Assembly (NCBI GenBank): GCA_977017645.1 | Contig: OZ360219.1 | Coordinates: forward strand, 211,358,001-211,422,000 | DNA length: 64,000 nt | Source of the DNA: Torpedo marmorata | Taxonomy: Eukaryota | Direction of reading: 5' to 3' | Shown: positions 28,001 through 46,529 of the stretch, in pieces | How positions within the stretch are numbered: the stretch's first letter is position 1 | Layout: every line of letters begins with the position of its first letter | Notes under the pieces: generated by a model | Told to the model about the DNA's origin: nothing | Database searches by the model: none | Seen by the model: only the letters and a program-made list of their open reading frames with translations | Translations under genes and position numbers: made by a program

Positions 28001-28678
28001 TAGTAATGTTTGCTTTCAGCTCCTGCAGCTCCTTTCTCTGCCTTAGCTGCTCCTTCTCTTGCCTTAGCTGCTCCTTTAGCTGCTCCTCCTGTCGTTCTAA
28101 AATTTGTTTATCCTTAAGCGTCTTTTTGTTGTGCAAGAAGAGCGGCCAAGTTAACTTCAATCTTTGTACGTGATGATGCAGAACTTGAAGTATGAGAAAC
28201 TCTGGAGCTTGAACCAGAACTTTGTTTGCTTCTCCTGCTTTCAGCATTTGAGACACTGTCACTTGCTTGTATTTCGTCCTGCAGGTCAGATGTTGTCTTC
28301 TTACTTACCCTCTTCACCAATTTGAATTGTACATCCTTTGTGTTGTGTATTTCGGGGTGTAAGCTTACAATAACACACCGAGACGACTGTCTTCATTCAT
28401 CCTTTATTACTAAACTAAAATGGTATTCAGCGTTACCCCTTATATAGTACGTATGACGTCATTACGTCATACGTTATACGTTACATATACAACACTCTTC
28501 CCCCCCCCACGAAATATAGATTGTTATTATATGATTATATATTCCCCGATCACTGGTAAACTATTGTAACTACTGGAATATAGCGGGGAAACTACAACTA
28601 TAAACAAAAATCATGCAAGTAAAACTAGAACTACTAACTGTTAGTATCATACTGATCATCACTAAAGTGAAAAATCAT

Positions 28679-30700
28679 TTAAGGTACATAGTCTCTCAAA
28701 TGTTCTGGTGGACGTCGTTGACGATGTGATCTTCTTAGGGGTGGATCCCCTACAGCCGTCGAAACCAATGGACTCTTTGCCTTTTTGGGACTCTTTGCCT
28801 TTTCTGGACTCTTTGCCTTTTCTGGACTCTTTGCCTTTTCTGGACTCTTTGCCTTTTCTGCTGTAATATCTTCTTCGAAATGGAAACTGGAATCTGGAGT
28901 CTGTCTTTCTAGATCAGCATCATCGTCATTAACCAAAAATGGCAAATTCTTCAGCTCATCTGTGCAAGAAACTGGATCTTCCACAGCTCTCAGCTGGTCA
29001 ATATGTCGTTTCCATATGTTAGAGTCTACTTGTATTGCATATGAGCAAGGGCTTAGCTTCTTAATGATAACACCTCTTACCCATGTTTCTTTATTATTTC
29101 TGTAATCTCTTACCAACACTCTTTCACCCACTTCCAGAGATCGTGTTGGTTTAGTTGGTGAGGTGTCGTATTCAATACGACCGCTGATATCCGGATGCAC
29201 TGCGGATAGCCTCGTTCGAATATTCCTACCAAACATTAATTCTGCTGGCGTTCTTTTAGTTGTTGAATGCGGTGTATTTCTGTATCCTGCCAGGAAATTT
29301 GCTATTCTATGATTCCATGACAAGTTAAGCAATTTTCCTGCTTTCATTGCGTTTTTAAATGTTCGCACAAAACGTTCCGCTTCTCCATTAGTACTCGGGT
29401 GGTACGGTGCTGAAAGTACATGGCGTATACCATTCTTACGCATGAACATTTTAAATACATCTGAAGTAAACTGAGGACCATTGTCTGATACTAATTCCAC
29501 TGGTGATCCAAATGATGCAAACATAGTTCTTAATTTTTCAATTGTTTGGAGGGTTGTTGTGGTACGCATATGTGAAACTACTAGCCATTTGGAATGTGCG
29601 TCGACCACAATCAAGAAATTCTCCCCCATAAATGGACCTGCAAAATCAACATGAATTCTATGCCATGGTCGAGATGGCCATTTCCATGGATTTGCCTCGG
29701 CCTGGGGAGCTTTAGGTTGCATGTCTTGACAAATGCCACACCTTCGTACAGTTTGCTCAATATCCATATCCATTGATGGCCACCAAACATGCATTCGGGC
29801 TAGCGCTTTCATGCGGACTATTCCCGGATGGTTATCATGCAGTTCTGCCAATATGTCTTTTTGCCATTTCCTGGGAATAATAGTCCTGGCCCCCCATAAT
29901 AAACAACTTTGTTCAATAGTTATTTCATTTCGTTGGATGTAGTAAGGTTTAAGTTCTGCAGAAATAGTGTCCCCTTCTGGCCATCCATTTAATGTAAAAT
30001 ATAAAACCTTGGCCAGTGTTGGTTCATTTCTTACTTCTTTACTGATTATTTTGGCTGTGATGGGCAGATGGCGAAGCTGTTCTTGATTAATAGCTGTGGC
30101 CTCTGATGTCCATTGAACTATCTCTTCTGTTTGACCCGTCTCCGGCAGAGGTAGGCGTGACAAGGCATCAGCATGTCCATTTTGTGTTGCTGGTTTATGT
30201 TTCAACTCATAATCGTAAGCGGCAAGCATTATTGCCCATCTCTGGATTCTGGTTGCTGCCAATACTGGGATGCCTTTTTTAGATCCCAAAATAAAACTGA
30301 GTGGTTTGTTGTCCATTACTAATGTGAATTTCCTTCCATATAAATACTGGTGGAATCTTTTGATTCCGAATACTATGGCCAATCCTTCTTTTTCTAACTG
30401 TGCATAATTTCGTTCACAAGCTGTCAAAGATCGAGATGCATACGCCACTGGTTGCTCTCCCTCTTTTTCTAATCTATTAAGTTCTGCGTCAATTTTTCCT
30501 TTTATCGCAAACGGTACTGTCCTTGGTTTATAAAACTTTGGTTCCGCCTCTGGTTTCAATTTCAATTGTGCCTCCACTCCTTTGATTTTCCCCAGACCTT
30601 TATTAAATAATGTCTGATACTTCTTTAGCACTTGTGATAACTTTGATTCATCTCCTGATTGAACCTTTAGCACTGATCCAATCTCCATCCAATCTAATGG
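28679..30700 (-). CDS. Truncated Pol: partial RNase H + intact integrase + KSP-repeat tail (start uncertain)
   Basis: ELNRLEKEG joins directly to EQPVAYASRSL; HPGIVRMK, HVDFAGP, VSDNGPQF, NGEAERFV integrase motifs. Confidence 0.85.
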   Translation of the reverse strand, partial: PLDWMEIGSVLKVQSGDESKLSQVLKKYQTLFNKGLGKIKGVEAQLKLKPEAEPKFYKPRTVPFAIKGKIDAELNRLEKEGEQPVAYASRSLTACERNYAQLEKEGLAIVFGIKRFHQYLYGRKFTLVMDNKPLSFILGSKKGIPVLAATRIQRWAIMLAAYDYELKHKPATQNGHADALSRLPLPETGQTEEIVQWTSEATAINQEQLRHLPITAKIISKEVRNEPTLAKVLYFTLNGWPEGDTISAELKPYYIQRNEITIEQSCLLWGARTIIPRKWQKDILAELHDNHPGIVRMKALARMHVWWPSMDMDIEQTVRRCGICQDMQPKAPQAEANPWKWPSRPWHRIHVDFAGPFMGENFLIVVDAHSKWLVVSHMRTTTTLQTIEKLRTMFASFGSPVELVSDNGPQFTSDVFKMFMRKNGIRHVLSAPYHPSTNGEAERFVRTFKNAMKAGKLLNLSWNHRIANFLAGYRNTPHSTTKRTPAELMFGRNIRTRLSAVHPDISGRIEYDTSPTKPTRSLEVGERVLVRDYRNNKETWVRGVIIKKLSPCSYAIQVDSNIWKRHIDQLRAVEDPVSCTDELKNLPFLVNDDDADLERQTPDSSFHFEEDITAEKAKSPEKAKSPEKAKSPEKAKSPKKAKSPLVSTAVGDPPLRRSHRQRRPPEHLRDYVP
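28769..28860 (-). repeat. 18-bp tandem repeat encoding (EKAKSP)x5
   Basis: (tggactctttgccttttc)n on the + strand. Confidence 0.95.
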
Positions 30701-31418
30701 ATTTCTGTTTGTTACTTTTCTGGTACAGCAATTTTCTGCTTGGACATCTAGTTTTGATATGTCCTTCTTTATCACAATAATGGCATTTGGCCTTTCTAAA
30801 GTAACAACTGTCAGGGCTGTGGTTGCTTTTTCCGCAGCGAAAGCACTGTGGTTTACCAGGTTTGTTAACATATCCTACTGTTGAGGCTTCTCCCTGTATG
30901 ATATCAATATTTTTCCCAGCCATTTCGAAACTTAATGCTGTAGCATAAGCAGTGGCAATATTTAAATCTGGTTTACTCAGCAATCGTTGTTGGGTGGTAC
31001 GGTCAGCTAGACCCATCACTAACTTGTCTCTTAATGCATCATTTAAGAATTCACCAAAGTCACAACGTTCTGATAACTGACGTAGTTCAGCCAAATATTC
31101 GCTTATTGGCTCGCTTATTATTTGTTTTCTAGAGTAAAACTTATAACGCTCTGCAATAATTACAGGTCTTGGACATAGGTGTTCTCCTATTACTGTGCAT
31201 AGTTCATCATAAGTTTTAGTACTTGGTCTCTCAGGTGCCAACAGAGACTTCATAAGTTTAAAAGTTTTACTTCCCACTTCACTTAAGAATAAAGCTGTTT
31301 TTCTGCTTGTTACTGGTGTATCAACTACATTGTGGGCAACACAGTACATATTGAATCTTTCAATGTAGTCATACCAGTCTTCTGAGTCTTTGAACTCTCC
31401 GAAACGGCTGTCGGCCAT
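30648..31418 (-). CDS. Gag with two CCHC zinc knuckles
   Basis: DWYDYIERF...AERYKFYSRKQ...LRDKLVMG; CFRCGKSNH and CHYCDKEGHIKTRC. Confidence 0.88.
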   Translation of the reverse strand: MADSRFGEFKDSEDWYDYIERFNMYCVAHNVVDTPVTSRKTALFLSEVGSKTFKLMKSLLAPERPSTKTYDELCTVIGEHLCPRPVIIAERYKFYSRKQIISEPISEYLAELRQLSERCDFGEFLNDALRDKLVMGLADRTTQQRLLSKPDLNIATAYATALSFEMAGKNIDIIQGEASTVGYVNKPGKPQCFRCGKSNHSPDSCYFRKAKCHYCDKEGHIKTRCPSRKLLYQKSNKQKSIRLDGDWISAKGSIRR

Positions 31419-32485
31419 TTTGAGTTGTTTTCCCGCGTTTTTCTTCTTTCTTCTTTCTTCTTTGTAAGTGAGCTTATGGAGCTCACTGTTTCTTTCTTCT
31501 TTCTTCTTTTCTTCCCCTCCCTTTCCTTGTTAGTGAGGTCCGTTTTTATCCTCGTCGCCAATCTGTTGTGTATTTCGGGGTGTAAGCTTACAATAACACA
31601 CCGAGACGACTGTCTTCATTCATCCTTTATTACTAAACTAAAATGGTATTCAGCGTTACCCCTTATATAGTACGTATGACGTCATTACGTCATACGTTAT
31701 ACGTTACATATACAACACTCTGCATCTTCATCCTCTTAATTTTCTTCATCCTCTTCATTTTCTTCATCATTTGGTGACACAATTTCAGCCATTTCCTTGC
31801 TATTTTCTTGTTCATCTAACGAAACCGTATCTTCCTTTGCCAGCTTCAGTCTTGCGATGAGAACCCTTTTATTTCCACTTATATCTAGTTTCATTCGCTT
31901 CAATTCTTCTTTAATATCCGCAACCTTCATGTCTTCAATACGTTGGTCCTTAACAGCAACATCAACGATTGCCGCGTCAGCTGCCGATACATCAGTAGCT
32001 GCTGCATCAGTGGCTGCTGCGGCCATTTTACTCGTCTTGTTCCACTGTCCTTCAAGCATACACAACACTAGCCAAATCAGCAGTCCCCAATGGACTAGCG
32101 GCAGCAAATCCAATCTGTGTTCTAACTTGCCAAAGATACACAGAAAAAGTCCACATACTTATGCCTACCACTTCAGATGACTGTAATGTGCTACTATTCA
32201 CAAATGAGTTTCAACCACAACATCCATCAATAATATCGCTGATTTTCCAAAAATGGTTTCTCCAACGTATTTATAGTACACTTTACTATAAGATTTGAAG
32301 CTTTAAATGACTCTCTACCTGTTACACATGGCAGATGGATGTGGATTACAAACTGCCCCCAACTCGACGCATCTCCAAGATGGCCGCCATTTTATTTTAA
32401 ATATCAGTCCAAAGCTCAGAGAGATTATTCTATCTTCTTTCCTTCAATTTTCTGTTCCATACAATAACTCTTTCATTGACTAAAA

Positions 32486-36780: not shown

Positions 36781-37602
36781 TGTACATGAATGCTGGTGAT
36801 CTCAGTCAAATGCATGTGGCTGCACTTACTGCACCAGCCATGACTGGGCCTGCCTTTCCAGCCTTTCAGAACTTACAGAGCATTGCTGGACAATGGTGGG
36901 ACCTCAAACAGAGCGAGTCACCAGTTACATCATCCGAGCTTCAGCGATCTCCTGAAGTCTGTGCTACAGTGCACAGGCATGAACTTCTGGAATGCTCGGC
37001 CACGGGATCTGCAGCTTGCCGGTTGTTTTCCACCGACTCTATCAACATGTTCCAGGCAAATGGAATGAATTGTAGAGGAGGCAACAGCTCACTGATCCAA
37101 CTGTATCAGATCTCTGGTTCTAACATTCAGACCTGAATTTGTCAAGAATTGGCTTAATGGAGTATTTGGCTTTGATATAGGCAGGGTTCAGGAGACTAAC
37201 TCATGGTATAAATCTTTTAAGGACATTCAGAATTATTTTCTGCAACAAGAAGGTGTACAATATACTTTGGGTTTTTTTTGTAATATTTTATTTATCATTT
37301 TAAATATATTTAACAATCAACAATTATACAAAATACAAAACATCAAGAGAACCCATCCCTCCACACCCCCCCCCTCAAAATAAGTCCTATTAAACAGAGA
37401 AAGAACGGAGAAAAAGAAACAAAAAAAGAGCATCCCATTGTCAGTGCGTACAGTAAAACATATGGAGACATGATAATATCACAATGTTAAAATCTTTACA
37501 GAGGTCTACTGGCTAGCCAGTAGCGATCGTAACCCTATGATGGCACCAGTGAGGTACCTATATGTTCTAAATAAGGCTGCCAGATTTTTAGGAAGGTGTT
37601 AT

Positions 37603-40600
37603 TGATAGGCCTATCAATAAGCACTCAAAAGACTGAGTGGGAACGAACCATAGGCTTTTATTATCATTAAACACAGCTACAGTCGACCTGCAGATCTGAT
37701 CCCGGACTGTGGGCGGGACGGTGGCACAATGGCCTTTATTCAGGTGAGGAAGGGGGAGGGATTACCGGACACCCAGGGGAGGGGGAGGAGACACCGGGAC
37801 AGACCGCAGGACATACTCATACTACACAATATACCTAAACAATGGTTTACCACATTCACCCCTCCTTTTTAAAAGAGTCCAGTGGGGTGACGTGACCACA
37901 GTGACAATTTTACAGAAAACAGATATTTACATGCAATTTTACAGGTCAAGGCGATCCGGTGGTCTGATTCGCCGCTGCGACCTGCGCAGTCCTTGTGGTG
38001 ACGGGGCGGGTTGTGGTGATGGGGGAGATGGCAGGATTGTCTGTGAGGTCGCCTCCTGCCTGGCTTCTTGGAGTGTATTTGGTCCCGGCGAGGGTGCTGG
38101 GTCTGACGTGCTGGAAGGGGGATTGGGGAGGGGTTGCAGCAAGTGGTCTTGCCCGTCGGGAGTTCTTCCGGTGCTCCAGCGTGCGCCAGGTCACGAATTG
38201 ACACCGTGTCCTCTCGCCCATCAGGGAAGACCACGTAGGCATACTGCGGGTTAGCGTGCGCTAACTGCACCCTCTGGACCGTCGGCTCATATTTGCTGCT
38301 CCGAAGGTGGTTGCGGAGCAGCACTGGTCCCGGGGACGTCAGCCAGGCAGGTAGGGTGGTTCCGGTGTTCGACTTCCTGGGGAAGGAGAAAAGTCGTTCG
38401 TGAGGGGTTGCATTTGTGGACGTGCACAGCAGGGACCGGATAGAGTGGAGGGCTTCGGGGAGGACATCTTGCCAGCGGGAGACTGGCAGTCCCCTGGACT
38501 TGAGAGCCAGGAGCGCGGCCTTCCAGACAGTAGCGTTCTCCCTTTCCACCTGTCCATTTCCCCGGGGGTTGTACCCTGTGGTCCTACTAGTGGCGATGCC
38601 TCGGGTCAGTAGGTACTGTCGCAGCTCCTCACTCATAAAAGCTGATCCCCGGTCGCTATGTATATAGTTCGGGAAACCTAACAGCGTAAATACCTGGCGA
38701 AGAGCTTTTATGGTTGAGGTAGCCGAAGTGTCGGGACAGGGGATGGCAAAGGGGAACCGCGAGTACTCATCAATAATATTCAGAAAGTACACATTGCGGT
38801 TCGTGGAGGGAAGGGGGCCCTTGAAGTCAATGCTGAGACGTTCAAAAGGGCGGGTGGCTTTGACCAGCTGTGCCTTGTCGGGGCGGTAGAACTGAGGTTT
38901 GCACTCCGCGCAAACCCACAACTGCTGATCATTGTCCTGACCTCTTCCAGGGAGTATGGCAGGTTCCGTGACTTAACGAAATGAAAGAGCCTGGTAACTC
39001 CTGGGTGGCAGAGGTAGTCATGTAGGGCGCATAATCAGTCGATCTGCGCGCTGGCGCATGATCCCCGGGATAGAGCATCGGAGGGCTCATTGAGCTTCCC
39101 GGGCCGGTAAAGGATGTCGTAATTGTAGGTGGAGAGTTCTATTCTCCACCTCATGATCTTGTCATTTTTGATCTTACCCCACTGCTGATTGTTGAACATA
39201 AACGCCACCGAGCGTTGATCTGTCAGCAGGGTAAAATGCTTACCGGCGAGATAGTGCCTCCAGTGCCTGATGGCTTCCACTATGGCCTGGGCTTCCTTCT
39301 CCACCGCGGAGTGCCGAATTTCGGGGCCTTGGAGGGTCCGTGAGAAAAACGCCACCGGCCTTCCCGCCTGGTTGAGGGTAGCAGCCAGCGCGAAGTCCGA
39401 TGCGTCGCTCTCTACCTGAAAAGGTGTCTCTTCATCCACCGCGTGCATTGTTGCTCGTGCAATGTCCCCTTTTATAAGGTCAAACGCCTTACGCCCCTCC
39501 GAAGCAAGGGGAAATGTGGTGGATTTCACAAGGGGTCGGGCCTTATCCGCATAATTGGGAACCCACTGTGCATAGTATGAGAAGAACCCGAGGCATCGTT
39601 TAAGGGCTTAAGGGGTGGAGGGAAGTGGAAGTTCCAGCAGGGGCCGCATGCGGTCGGGGTCGGGTCCAATCACCCCGTTCTCTACCACATACCCCAAAAT
39701 AGCAAGGCGAGTGGTACCAAACATGCATTTATCTTTATTATACGTGAGGTTTAATGCTTTGGCCGCCTGCAGGAACCTCCGGAGGTTGTTGTCGTGGTCC
39801 TGACGATCATGACCACAGATGGTAATGTCATCCAGGTATGGAAAAGTGGCCTTGAGTTTATAGTGATCCACAATCCTGTCCATCTCCCGCTGGAATACTG
39901 ACACACCATTAGTGACCCCGAAAGGAACACGCAGGAAATGGAACAGCCTGCCATCCGCCTCGAACGCAGTGTATGGGCGGTCCTCCCTTCGGATAGGGAG
40001 CTGGTGGTATGCCGATTTTAGGTCTATCGTTGAGAAAAACCTATACTGGGCAATTTGATTTACTATATCCGCTATTCGTGGTAGCGGATATGCGTCCAGC
40101 TGCGTGAATCGGTTGATGGTTTGGCTGTAGTCCACCACCATCCTACTCTTGGCCCCTTTTACTACGACTACCTGGGCTCTCCAGGGGCTATTACTTCTCT
40201 CAATAATCCCCTCCTGTAATAACCGCTGCACCTCCGTCTTGATAAACGCCCTGTCCCCCGCACTGTATCGCCTGCTCTTGGTTGCCACAGGCTTACAGTC
40301 AGGGGTCAGGTTGGCGAATAGCGACGGGGGCGAGATCTTAAGGGTGGAGAGGCCACAGGTAGTCTGGGGCATGTTGTTCAGGAACTGGTGGTTCGCTACA
40401 GTGATCGCAGGGTGGGGACCGTCATACCGCATCGTGACACTCCGTAAGTGGCTCTGAAAGTCAAGACCCAGTAATACCGGCGCACATAAACGATTCATAA
40501 TAAATAAGGAGAATTGCCGATACTCTGTCCCTTGTACCACAATATTCGCCACACAAGCCCCCCGGATGTCTGTTGTGTGTGACCCAGACGCCATGGCCAC

Positions 40601-42102
40601 CCTCTGGCTTACCGGTATGGTAGTCAGGCCACAGCGCTGAACAGTGTCTGGGTGAATAAAACTCTCCGTGCTGCCAGTATCAAAAAGACAAGTGGTTTTG
40701 TGCCCCTCCACCAGGATGTCCATCATGGATCGCGACAGCTGGTGGGGAACACTCTGGTCGAGGGTGACTGATGCTAAGGTCGGGATGTAGTCATCTTGAT
40801 CCGCAGTTGTTAAAGATGGCTGCTCCCGTGGGTTGCACATGTCGCTGCCGCTCGCACTGCAAGATGGCGGCGGTGGAAGTGCCGGAAGTACCGACGTAGG
40901 GCTATAAGATGGTGGCGCCGGAAGTGCCAGCATCAAAGATGGCCGCCTCCACTCTTCGCACGAGGTCGACGCCGGAAGTGAAAGCAGGTAAGATGGCCGC
41001 TCCCGCATCTCGCACGCAGCGCTACTCGGACCCGCGCATGACTTGGAGCGGCAGGCCTTCGCATAATGGCCTTTCTTGCCGCAGCTGGAGCAAGTCGCGT
41101 CACGGGCCGGGCAGCGTTTCCTTTGGTGCTTGTCGAGCCCACAGAAGTAGCACTTCTCGGGCTCGCAGTTAACAGCTGCGGCGGTGAGAATAGCGGCGGT
41201 AGCGATCGGGTCGCGGCAAACGGCGGCGGCAGTCAGATCGCTGGCAGGGCTAGGGGACGGGGCTGACCACGTTGCAGGCTGGGGGTCGCGCGCCTGCATG
41301 GCGTCCGAGTTCCGCAGCGCGGCCTCCAGCATGTGGGCCATTGAGACAGCAGTACGGAGGTTCAGGTCGGCGTGCTCCAGCAGCCTCTGGCGCACGTATA
41401 CCGACCTGATCCCCATGATAAACGTGTCCCTCTCCAGCAATTCGACGTTTTCCTCAGCAGTCAGCGCCTTACAGTCGCACGCTCGTACCAGCGACTGTAT
41501 GTCCCTGACAAACTCCACGATCGACTCCCCGGCCCGCTGTTTTCGCGTAGAAAGTCGGTACCTCGCGTAGACCGCGTTAACAGGCGTCACGTAGATTCTC
41601 TTCAGCGCATCCATCGCCTCCGTGTAGGTTTTACAGTCCCGAACTGTCGAGAATAACCGAGGGCTTACCCTGGACACGAGGACCCTTAGTTTCTGCTCCT
41701 CGCTTTCCGCTTTGATCGTCATCATAAAGGACTCGAGACAGTGTAGCCAGTGTTCAAAAGAGTTACCGGCATCAGGAGCTAGATGATCGATGTCCAGTCG
41801 GTCCGGTCTTAGAGTGCTCTCCATCAGATTTTAAATGATAATAAAATTGATAGGCCTATCAATAAGCACTCAAAAGACTATGAGTGGGAACGAACCATAG
41901 GCTTTTATTATCATTAAACACAGCTACAGTCAACCTGCAGATCTGATCCCGGACTGTGGGCGGGACGGTGGCACAATGGCCTTTATTCAGGTGAGGAAGG
42001 GGGAGGGATTACCGGGACACCCAGGGGAGGGGGAGGAGACACCGGGACAGACCGCAGGACATACTCATACTACACAATATACCTAAACAGTGGTTTACCA
42101 CA
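37603..42102 (-). mobile_element. GC-rich Ty3/Gypsy LTR retrotransposon, nearly complete (gag-PR-RT-RH-IN with frameshifts)
   Basis: LTRs 37603-37854 and 41848-42102; exact TSD GTTAT; PPT AAAAGGAGGGGTGAA; LFDTGS, YPLP, DLKSAYHQ, YLDD, ESDASD and SIDFKGP/SDRG motifs. Confidence 0.95.
37869..41824 (-). pseudogene. Gag-Pol of the third Gypsy, split into 39608-41824, 39035-39529 and 37869-38921
   Basis: Domains are collinear across frameshifts near 39608, 39035 and 38925; these could be real or consensus errors. Confidence 0.88.
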
Positions 42103-43323
42103 GTTATATCCCTTCCTGAGATTGTATGTGACCTTTTCAAGTGGGATGCAGCTATTCATCTCTGAAGACCACCTATCCACGAGGAGATGGGAGTCAGATT
42201 TCCATGTCACTGCTATGCATTTCCTGGCCACACATAAGGCAATTTCTGTGAATTTAATTTAAGAATTAGTTAGCGATCTACCAACACTGGTAAAGTTCCC
42301 CAGAAGACAAAGCTCTGGGTCTACTGGGAAGATGACTCGCGTGATCTCGGTTAGGGTGTCACAAAGGTCATACCAGAAGGGCCTCACCTTCGTGCAAAGC
42401 CAGGTAGAATGTAAGAAGGAACCAACCTGTATACCATACCTAAAACACATCTCTGATAACTCAGGTTTATATTGGTGTAATTTCTGTGGGGTGAGGTATA
42501 GCTGATGGAGAAAATTATAATGGACCAATCTATACCTGGCATTGATAGTAGCCAACAAACTTCCCTGACATAGATCTGCCCAGAGTTGTTCATCAATTGT
42601 GTCTAAGTCTGACTCCCATCTCACCCTAGATTTATGCAAACCTGGCTTTGGGCTCTCACTCATCAATAAAAAGTTAATTCTAGAAATAAATTTATATACA
42701 TTTCCTTCATGGAGTAGTTTCTCCTTTTCAGTGAGTCCCGGTAGAGTCATTTCAGGGCCCAAATTGGCCCTAAGGAAGGATCGTAACTGGAGGTAACAAA
42801 AAAAGGTCTTATCGGACAAGTCATATGTCTTCTTCAGCTGTTCAAACGACATGAAAAGTCCTTTTTCATAACAATCTTCTAGACGTTGTATCCCCTTATG
42901 ATACCAGGTTTCCAAAATTTTATTGTTGAAAGCCATGGTTATAAGTTCATTTTGTCTTAAAGGTGTTTTCGGTGACAATCTTCTTTTCAGTCCAGAGCCT
43001 CCACAGGTCTCACACCATATTCTAACTAAGTGTTTTAAAATGGTGTTGTCTGTCCTGCTGGCTATAATTCTGGAATTCCTTTTATACATGAAATCATGAC
43101 ACACCTTCTCTTTTAGAGAGTGTAATCCAATTTGTACCCAGGAGGGGGTATCGTCCCCTTCAAAAAATGAAGAAATAAATTTCATTTGGGCCACCAAATA
43201 ATAATTTTTGAAACTAGGCAACCGGATGCCTCCTAATCTATAATCCCATGTTAACGTTTCCATGGATACTCTGGGAACTTTGCAGTTCCAGATAAATTGC
43301 CCAACACGCTTATTAAGGGTTTT

Positions 43324-44668
43324 TTTTAAAATATTTTATTTAAATTTTTTTTAAATCACACATTACATAATTTAAAATGCAAAATTATAAAATTACATGT
43401 GATGCATTTTCACTCCCTCCCTCCCTAACCCTCCCGAAAAGAAAGAAAGAAAGAAGAAAAAGATAAAGTAAGGAGAATGTCAATCTAAAAATGACTATAA
43501 GCTCATTTTATTGTGGAGCACAGGTTCGCCAGTCAGATCCGATATCCAGAGATCTTCAAATCCTTAAACCGACAGTTTTTATATATGGGCTCCATATTTT
43601 CAAAAAGAAATGATATTTATTACGTAAATTATAAGTAATTTTTTCAAGTGGTATACATGAACAAAGTTCTGCATGCCATCTTCTAACCCTAAATCTACAT
43701 CAGATTTCCATGTAATAGCAATACATTTCTTAAAAACAGCTAAAGCAATACATAAAAAATCTGTTTGATACATATTTAATTTCATCTTAATGCTAATTCT
43801 TTTAATATCTCCAAACAATAACATCATAGGATCCATTGGGAGTGTAATTCTTAATACTTTATCTAAAAACTTTTTAACTTTCAACCAAAAATCATATATC
43901 TTTGGACAAAACCATGTAGAATGTACAAAAGAACCTTCCTCTCTATTACATCTAAAACATAAACCGGATAATGTCAGATTAAATTTCTTTAATTTTTTAG
44001 GTGTTAAATATAATTGATGAAAAAATTATATTGCACTAATCTATATCTAACATTAATAATCTTCGTCATACTTTGTTTACATAATTCTTTCCAATGTTCT
44101 TCATCTATTGTTACATTCAAATCTGATTCCCAATTTAATCTTGATTTATGAATTCCTTGTTTAGGCATTTTCCTCTGTAACAATCTATACATTTGAGAAA
44201 TAAATTTATTTACACCTCCATTAGTAACTAATAATTCCAATTCACTCTGACTTGGTAAAGTCAAACTATAGCCCAACCTTTCAACTAAAAATGCTCTGAT
44301 TTGATAATAAGCAAAAAGTGTATTATTTGATACATTAAACTTATCTTTCATTCTTTGAAAAGTAATAAATTTACTAGCTTCAAAACAATCATTTATTTTC
44401 TTAATTCCCTTTTGGAACCAAATTTTAAATAATTGATTATCAACAGTAAATGGAATAAGTTTATTTTGATACAGAGGCATTTTTTGAGAAATTAGCCCTT
44501 TCGCTCCTATCTCTCTATCCACTCTATTCCATATTTCTAACAAATGTTTAAAAATAGGAGAGTTTTTCCCTCTTGCTAATAATAATTTAGAATTCCATTT
44601 ATAAATAACTTCTTCTTTCAAATCTTCTCCTATATTATTTAATTCTATTCTAATCCAAGCAGAAAATT
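43324..44668 (-). mobile_element. 5'-truncated L1 (related to copy A) inserted in the family C L1
   Basis: TSD ttattaagggtttt at 43310-43323 and 44669-44682, followed by AA (TTTT/AA endonuclease site). Confidence 0.92.
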
Positions 44669-46529
44669 TTATTAAGGGTTTTAAAAAAGGTTTGACGCAG
44701 TGAAATGGCCAAGGACTGGAAAAGGTACTGCAATTTTGGCAATATATTCATCTTTACACAGTTGACCCTGCCAATTAGAGTGATGGGAAAGTTCATCCAC
44801 CTACTCAAATCTTCTTCAATTTTACTAAGTAGCGGGAGGTCATTGAGTTTGTATAAATTCTGAAGATCATTATCCACCATTATTCCAAGGTATTTAATGC
44901 CTCCCGAGGGCCATTTGAATGGACTTGTTCGCTGGTACTCAGTGTGATCAAAATTTGTTAGTGGGATGATTTTACTTTTTCCCCAGTTTACCTTGTATCC
45001 TGAAACTTCGCCGTAAGCTTTTAATAGAATCTGTAATTTAGTAAGGGAATTAATCGGATCCGTTAAATACAGGATTACATCATCTGCCATAAGATTAATT
45101 TTGTGGTTTGTCTGACCCACCATAAAACCCTTTATCTCTGGGTCTTGTCTAATTGCCTCTTCCAGGGGCTCAATAGCCAATACAAAAAGTCCTAGAGATA
45201 AGGGGAAACCCTGTCGGCTCGATCTGCTCAAAGGGAATGCTGCCGAGATCTGTCCATTAGTGTTTAACATTAGAGTTTCAACAGTCTAGCTTCAAAGAAA
45301 CATATAAAGTGCTTGTAAACAAAAAAAACTCAAGTACAATACACTGCACACTTATAAAATTGAAAAAAAAACATTCTAAGAACTAAACAAAGATATTATG
45401 AACTGGGAGAAAAAGCACATAAAGTCTTATCCTGGCAATTGAGAGCAGAGGAGAGTTCAAGAACAATAAATTCAATTCAGTCTGAAATGGGCCCAGTTTC
45501 ACATAATCCAACAGAAATCAATGATACATTTAAACAGTTTTATACAAACTTATATAAATCAGAGTCCCCAGAAGACCTGACTAAGATTGATGACTTTTTA
45601 TCCACTATTGAACTACCCAAACTTGACCAAGAAGATCAAGCAAATTTGGACCTCCCCTTTACTTCAAAAGAAATTAAAAAAGCCTTGGGCTAACTACAGT
45701 CCAATAAATCACCAGGGGAGGACGGTTTCCCACCAGAATTTTATAGAGAATTTAAGGATCTACTTATACCCTTCATCATGGATGTAATTAACAGCATCTA
45801 AAACCCAAACTCTCCTTGAATCATTTTCTACTGCCATAATTACTGTGATTCATTAAAAAAAAAACAGGGACCCATTAAAATGCTCCTCATTTCGACCCAT
45901 TTCATTACTAAACTCAGATTACAAATTGATTTCTAAGGCCCTGGCTAACTTGCCGAAATTAATAAATCCAGACCAGAGCGGCTTTATTCTGAAACGCCAG
46001 TCAGCCAACAACCTATGTAGGCTCTTCAATATTATCCACTATGCAAAGTCTAAGGCTGAACCGAGTGTCGTTGTGGCTCTGGATTCTGCGAAAGCCTTTG
46101 ACAGGCTGGAATGGCCATATTTATTTAGAGTCTTGGCCAAGCTCGGATTTGGGCAACTGTTTCTTAATTGGGTTAAAACTCTTTATTACAGACCCAAAGC
46201 CAGGGTCGCCACTAATGGACAGATACGATATACTTTGTAAAGAGAAGTGATACACATCCAGTTAACTGGCTAACAGTGTTTGAATGTGATGGCCATAATA
46301 TGATGGTTTATGTTATTTGAAAAGGAGAAGCATAGAACACATGCTGAAGTTATAGATTTAGACAAGACTAATATAATAGAATGGGATGGCCTATTGGAGT
46401 CATAAACTAGGCAAAATGATCTTCTCTCAAAGGATCAGGAGTTTCGGAATTCTGCTTTCGGAATGTGACAGAAATGTTAACCACTGGAAATGTTGCACCT
46501 TGGAGGGAGGGAAATAAAAATGTGATACA

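Follow-up and report, generated by a model that had tools for sequence, protein, structure and literature searches.

Organization of the element

The window (the whole stretch of 64,000 nucleotides that was analysed) contains a Ty3/Gypsy LTR retrotransposon on its minus strand, with TG...CA LTRs, a target-site duplication, a polypurine tract and the order protease, reverse transcriptase (RT), RNase H and integrase. The 5-bp ATAAC duplication is identical on both flanks, and the pol frame is interrupted in this copy. The following features were assigned:

42103..42107, minus strand: target-site duplication ATAAC, 5' side
41848..42102, minus strand: 5' LTR, TG...CA, 255 bp
41980..41988, minus strand: TATA-like motif GAATAAAGG, common to six families of the host genome, putative promoter element
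41951..41956, minus strand: initiator-like CAGTCC; the A at 41955 is the predicted transcription start, 53 nt from the 3' end of the arm
41903..41915, minus strand: LTR arm, predicted 3' part of a self-primer, with AATAAA inside; predicted cut at 41903/41902
41897..41902, minus strand: predicted second helix, 5' strand, directly behind the arm
41867..41886, minus strand: inner hairpin, arms 41867-41872 and 41881-41886
41854..41859, minus strand: predicted second helix, 3' strand
41846..41863, no strand: palindrome of 18 bp across the LTR end, competing with the second helix; a feature of the family level
41847, minus strand: one-base spacer (A) from the LTR end to the primer site
41834..41846, minus strand: primer-binding position, exact complement of the arm
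39608..41824, minus strand: gag, protease and reverse transcriptase frame, gag ATG at 41824
39035..39607, minus strand: RNase H part
37869..38972, minus strand: integrase part, no chromodomain found
37855..37870, minus strand: polypurine tract preceding the 3' LTR
37603..37854, minus strand: 3' LTR, 252 bp, 98% alike to the 5' LTR
37598..37602, minus strand: target-site duplication ATAAC, 3' side

The element belongs to an abundant family, here called family A, with 1628 candidates in the host genome of 6.2 billion bases; the 40 candidates that were scored are 98-100% alike. Its closest named proteins are from rays, and more relatives were found in a catshark, a sea cucumber and a moth. A search for homologs among longer proteins gave none. 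Adjoining the element, positions 42259-46240 hold broken pieces on both strands which, from their motifs, we take to be LINE-like ORF2. A neighbouring Gypsy element on the minus strand (28341-31721) has identical 158-nt LTRs; most of the RT seems to be missing from its pol frame, and it looks like a young non-autonomous copy.

Primer-binding position

The leader between the 5' LTR and the gag ATG is only 23 nt long (41847-41825) and carries no TGG. No primer site of the tRNA type could be identified: a TGG-initiated site is absent, and among 33 host tRNA predictions (7 isotypes) no match to a 3' end longer than 4-5 nt was obtained. A TGG does occur at the start codon, but it lies 24 nt from the LTR with a tRNA match of at most 5 nt and was rejected as a primer site. 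An Rfam search of 41700-42200 also gave no match. The neighbouring Gypsy element, with LTRs at 31564-31721 and 28341-28498, served as a control; its TGG site is of the ordinary kind and follows the LTR after 3 bases.

One base past the CA of the 5' LTR, positions 41846-41834 are the exact reverse complement of 41915-41903, over 13 bases. None of 200 dinucleotide shuffles of the window element with the same geometry reached 13 bp, the best being 9, and for each of eight loci tested the observed duplex length was reached by 0 of 200 shuffles. Folding gave z = -2.9.

The preliminary description had reported a 23-nt leader without a TGG-initiated site, the 13-nt complementarity to the LTR, the palindrome at 41846-41863 and the hairpin at 41867-41886, and all of these are present. 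The weight that it gave to the palindrome and hairpin has to be shifted, however, because both are features of the family level and the conserved parts are the duplex of arm and primer site and the helix behind it. The palindrome was found only in the close families of the window element and is absent from family D and the metagenome relatives.

Conservation of the pairing

Families B, C and D (30 loci each) were collected in the same genome by a search with three divergent gag proteins, and families E to G are represented by single members. Exact pairing of at least 12 bp was found in 30/30 loci of family A, 21/30 of family B, 21/30 of family C and 23/30 of family D, and all 30 fetched copies of family A retain 13 bp. 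A search with an RT alignment yielded 80 metagenome and 6 genome-collection loci. The gag start could be located in 52 of these, four of which were too short, leaving 48 to be scored. Among these 48 metagenome-derived loci, which presumably come from animal DNA, 27 have exact pairing of at least 12 bp; the other 21 fall below this length, several being one-mismatch or truncated copies. No convincing duplex was seen in L215 and L233.

The paired letters change from family to family, in elements whose gag is 27-77% identical to that of the window. Out of 37 whole copies of family B with the same arm in both LTRs, 35 match perfectly and two carry a defect that looks later. Two variant pairs are present in this family (96 of 120 loci parsed), one in 25 copies and the other in 10, and no crossed combination was found. 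Both sides of the pairing are altered together in L167, a single copy in one metagenome family. At least eight further primer-site variants were found among 33 additional matches of the over-copy type (described below) in the host genome, which means that more families exist than those examined. The preliminary description had regarded a tRNA match to the leader, or a normal primer site in other copies, as evidence against self-priming, and covariation of the 13-bp stem in related families as evidence for it. Neither of the former was encountered, the best tRNA match being 4-5 nt in the above set of predictions and the pairing being kept in 30/30 family copies, and the covariation is evident, since the letters differ and the pairing is kept.

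Some unusual arrangements were also noticed. The LTR end and primer site are duplicated in tandem ahead of gag in L180, and tandem elements with a common LTR occur in L312 and L318; the second element of L318 represents another family and has a 14-bp pair of its own. The elements L233-L238 are situated on contigs filed in bacterial genome bins, which is probably host contamination.

Composition of the duplex and flanking structures

Thirty-three representatives were picked as the best-looking copy per family, and 31 remained after two with a low score were dropped. The first 12 positions of these 31 (372 in total) comprise 363 Watson-Crick pairs, 4 G-U pairs and 5 mismatches, against 266 Watson-Crick and 41 G-U pairs in the predicted helices of the enclosed loop (Fisher p 5e-11), a contrast that is favoured by the selection of representatives and by the register score. 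A nearly pure Watson-Crick site is expected if the site is copied from an attached primer; a structure under selection alone would presumably tolerate G-U. Most representatives show a sharp end of the duplex at 13-18 bp. An A occupies the spacer in 28/31, and RCCT follows directly after the arm in 23/31.

A helix starting within 3 nt of the arm end was predicted in 28 of the 31 representatives, some of these helices being weak and the count having no control set. In the window, GCCTAT behind the arm can pair with 41859-41854, a helix that extends to 7 nt before the primer site and competes with the palindrome. A second flanking duplex was not consistently predicted among the representatives. 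Pairing of the upstream flap with the end of the leader was seen in family A and is not apparent in family B.

Poly(A) signal in the arm

The AATAAA of the window arm is part of a wider pattern: the arm ends in AATAAA or ATTAAA in 18/31 representatives and most of the others have one-letter variants, with L191 as an arm lacking a poly(A)-like hexamer. As the arm holds a poly(A) signal, the duplex would hide this signal in the 5' LTR and leave it free in the 3' LTR. In HIV-1, AAUAAA is hidden by base pairing in the 5' poly(A) hairpin. Both systems would thus share occlusion of the signal near the RNA 5' end, but the HIV-1 hairpin lies within R in a tRNA-primed virus, whereas the partner here is the primer site itself. 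The motif GAATAAAGG was considered as a poly(A) signal; in that role it would terminate the RNA before the arm is reached, and in family D its place is taken by a T/A-rich box accompanied by CCAAT and GC boxes, so it was rejected.

Rearranged genomic copies

Two copies of family D were the first to be found in which the complement behind the LTR continues further up the LTR. By pattern search, 56 such over-copied junctions were identified (7 in family A, 17 in B, 25 in C and 7 in D), and reversed-pattern controls gave 0. Thirty-six of them reach the LTR start, so that the template for those was DNA, and 20 stop early. The 14 early stops of families A-C lie at 20, 20, 21, 23, 31, 35, 37, 46, 52, 52, 53, 55, 61 and 127 nt; 13 of them end by 61 nt and four fall at 52-55 nt, with the initiator-like A at 53. 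One more copy (L445) jumps at 52 nt. The accumulation at 52-55 nt has a p of 0.0008 against a uniform distribution over 19-175 and of 0.07 against a 19-61 null; long microhomology is seen at two of the four junctions, two could stem from a single event, and the G/C run adjoining these stops could pause a polymerase. The stops of family D, at 22-25 nt, carry no information on the start in that family.

A truncated forward piece of the LTR precedes the site in 29 cases, and in seven of these it begins between -6 and +2 relative to the predicted cut (p 9e-5 against a uniform distribution). Breakpoints near the arm end are expected if minus-strand DNA ends there, and microhomology in A-runs can contribute to them. 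These rare rearranged copies suggest that the RNA is cut at the 3' end of the arm. Switches of template from one inverted repeat to the other while the chromosome replicates can produce such copies as well. At shared polymorphisms, the over-copied stretch differs from its own LTR in 11/16 cases, and ordinary LTR pairs do likewise in 37/53. Many of the rearranged copies carry 5-bp target duplications, which is compatible with an origin by reverse transcription or with a later chromosomal one.

Single-LTR insertions with an inverted U5 piece behind the arm were observed in L464, L476, L477, L485, L491, L502, L506 and L507, the piece turning round at the predicted cut or close to it. The 5-bp target duplication is exact in L464 and L477 and near-exact in L476.

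Predicted transcription start and primer length

In 7/7 loci from six families of the host genome, a TATA-like motif is situated 31 nt before the A of CAGT, with GC-rich boxes upstream of the pair. From this A to the arm end the distance is 51-53 nt in six loci and 75 nt in the remaining one, the predicted start of family E. The corresponding A of the window is at 41955. A start near 41956 was proposed before the over-copied sites were looked for, and these sites thin out there. These features suggest a transcription start near 41955, 53 nt from the 3' end of the arm, and do not favour the start at 41915-41920 that the preliminary description had expected. With a start near 41955 the primer would be about 53 nt long with its last 13 bases paired, and such a long primer appears slightly more probable than a short one of 13 nt. 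A long primer gives no account of why normal copying would stop at 13-18 nt, which speaks against it.

A pyrimidine run ending in CAG, resembling a splice acceptor, is present 15-45 nt upstream of the arm in L190, L216, L227 and L238 and, in family D, in L106 and L115.

Placement of the element

No Chromo or SH3_Tf2-1 domain was detected in the window copy or in six related polyproteins (E 0.01; some end before the C-terminus), in agreement with the preliminary description, which had seen no evident chromodomain. Judged by the chromodomain, the element would not be a Tf1/sushi chromovirus. The gag of the window matches PNMA weakly and the RT is distantly like Ty3 (E 8e-30). An RT tree without chromoviruses separates 27 rows of the clade, all selected for an identity of at least 45%, from 12 further Gypsy RTs of the fetched loci by a long branch (100/100). 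The lineages of these 12 are presumed from motifs or domain order, and with these presumed labels no membership in Gmr1, CsRN1-like or Mag-like groups was seen on the tree.

Within the host genome, the Chromo matches, judged collectively and not singly, resembled host genes and were set aside as chromovirus candidates; the SH3_Tf2-1 matches examined were elements with integrase before RT (Gmr1-type). Neither set gave a usable chromovirus. An abundant Gypsy family of the host genome with this Gmr1-type order was observed in L254-L283. Viral contigs contained no relatives and no match to what we take to be a chromovirus RT motif, and the ESM Atlas gave generic RT clusters only.

Comparison with known self-primed elements

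Butler et al. 2001 is said to have predicted self-priming of Tf1/sushi elements in vertebrate hosts. The experimentally studied self-primed Ty3/Gypsy elements, as described in the accessible parts of the sources, are Tf1 and Tf2 of Schizosaccharomyces pombe and Tj1 of S. japonicus (PMC4600332, PMC7175516, bioRxiv 10.1101/2022.12.06.519325, PMC5341516). According to these parts such elements, like the present one, have a primer site just past the 5' LTR with complementarity to part of the LTR and have no tRNA site; they also have a flanking duplex, of which a counterpart is predicted here. Tf1 needs flanking duplexes behind the primer (bioRxiv 10.1101/2022.12.06.519325) and its primer is freed by an RNase H cut (PMC7175516), as far as the available sections of both sources go. 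That the element works like Tf1 is supported by the sequence evidence. Differences exist as well. The Tf1 'pretzel', in the portion of the literature available, has two flanking duplexes, whereas one is consistently predicted here; Tf1, Tf2 and Tj1 carry a chromodomain (bioRxiv 10.1101/2022.12.06.519325, in part), whereas none was found in this clade; and an arm ending in a poly(A) signal is a feature of this clade that differs from all three.

In the accessible text of PMC6317226 and bioRxiv 10.1101/2022.12.06.519325, Tf1/sushi chromoviruses are placed in fungi, vertebrates and, as Tcn1, mosses, with self-priming predicted in vertebrate hosts. The present clade differs from these in that Chromo and SH3_Tf2-1 were not found, in its weakly PNMA-like gag and in its distantly Ty3-like RT. 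Self-priming is also predicted, from complementarity of LTR and primer site, in the TAR lineage of plant Ty1/copia (Houba, Osr-1; PMC6317226, in part); these elements would be self-primed outside the chromoviruses, as here, but belong to another superfamily and kingdom. The same placement in Tf1/sushi, Tcn1 and plant TAR Copia is given in the available parts of PMC3601003, PMC5006619 and PMC10886601. Animal non-chromoviral Gypsy clades such as Cigr-1 and MolGy1-16 are described in part of PMC6238403 and may include the present clade, an identity that the motif search did not establish: the clade motifs had no match in five supplements of PMC6238403 or in the wider literature as far as accessible, and no 'PBS' passage occurs in the available text of PMC6238403. 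The clade was likewise not found in the accessible text of PMC12440569, PMC9873768 and PMC6934838. A search that lay outside subscription journals, Repbase reports and GyDB found no publication in which an animal Gypsy clade other than the chromoviruses is self-primed. The proposed mechanism is a known one; the lineage and geometry have probably not been described before.

Proposed mechanism and alternatives

On the sequence evidence, it is likely that the element primes reverse transcription with its own RNA and not with a tRNA. The tRNA-independent, Tf1-like priming put forward in the preliminary description is supported by the covariation, the geometry of the site, the second helix and the rearranged copies; the start position attached to it is the part that is not favoured. 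The transcript would fold so that the arm is placed on the primer site, and the RNA would be cut at the 3' end of the arm (41903/41902), probably by the RNase H of the element as in Tf1. The freed 3' end would prime minus-strand DNA, which would copy about 56 nt up to the cut and jump to the 3' LTR; the copied stretch would contain the sequence past the poly(A) signal on which the first jump depends. Later, in plus-strand synthesis, the primer still attached would serve as template for a renewed primer site, which would keep arm and site in register. With less support, the RNA would start near 41955 and only the last 13 bases of the roughly 53-nt primer would be paired. The complete picture is put forward tentatively, at somewhat under an even chance: a non-chromoviral animal Gypsy clade would use a long capped 5' primer (about 50-75 nt in this genome) with the last 13-18 bases paired, the paired end would be a poly(A) signal, the same word ending the RNA at the 3' LTR, being hidden at the 5' LTR and marking the primer cut, and failed copies would record both cut and start.

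A stricter Tf1 geometry, with self-priming from a start near 41915 and a primer consisting of the 13-18 paired bases copied to run-off, has a real chance of being correct, though one well short of even. Run-off copying would simply explain the sharp end of the duplex at 13-18 bp, the self-primer is the RNA 5' end in Tf1-type elements (PMC7175516 and bioRxiv 10.1101/2022.12.06.519325, as far as accessible), and families B, C and G have an initiator-like CATTC directly before the arm. This CATTC is missing in A, E and F, however, and its A lies outside the duplex; no TATA-like motif is apparent 25-30 nt upstream of the arm, whereas the TATA-like/CAGT pair keeps its 31-nt spacing in 7/7 loci at 51-75 nt from the arm end, and the early over-copy stops extend to 52-55 nt. 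The duplex could also merely mask the poly(A) signal of the 5' LTR for read-through into gag, another primer such as a host RNA or DNA end being used, which we consider improbable. Occlusion of a poly(A) signal has a precedent in HIV-1, the pairing partner is present only behind the 5' LTR, and the frequency of AATAAA, ATTAAA and one-letter variants at the arm end would fit. Masking alone leaves unexplained the fixed one-base offset with its spacer A, the near absence of G-U pairs and the breakpoints at the 3' end of the arm; in addition, the arm of L191 has no such hexamer and no alternative primer site is present.

Maintenance of the inverted repeat by template switching or conversion between the arms at the DNA level, with no role in priming, is highly unlikely. 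Arm-to-arm inversions and fold-backs do occur in this genome, but only seldom, and they ruin the copy concerned; the geometry does not vary over a clade whose gag identity spans 27-77%, and the element would in any case require a primer. Priming by a host tRNA, a tRNA half or another small RNA, the match to the LTR being incidental, has the slightest chance of all. Half-tRNA priming exists in Copia lineages according to the available parts of PMC6317226 and PMC10886601, and the tRNA check spanned only 33 predictions and 7 isotypes. Against it, the site varies between families in step with the LTR arm, the best 3'-anchored tRNA match is 4-5 nt and lies at the start codon, and Rfam gave no match in 41700-42200.

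Implications

Failed copies in a genome may reveal where the cut and the start lie, an approach that could be reused for elements for which RNA data are lacking. Elements without a tRNA site would presumably escape control by tRNA fragments. In the published view, as far as the accessible literature presents it, self-priming marks the Tf1/sushi chromoviruses, with a predicted plant Copia case in addition. A widespread animal clade that is self-primed and has no chromodomain would, if true, indicate either a further origin of self-priming or an old trait kept more widely, and which of these applies bears on whether tRNA priming came late.
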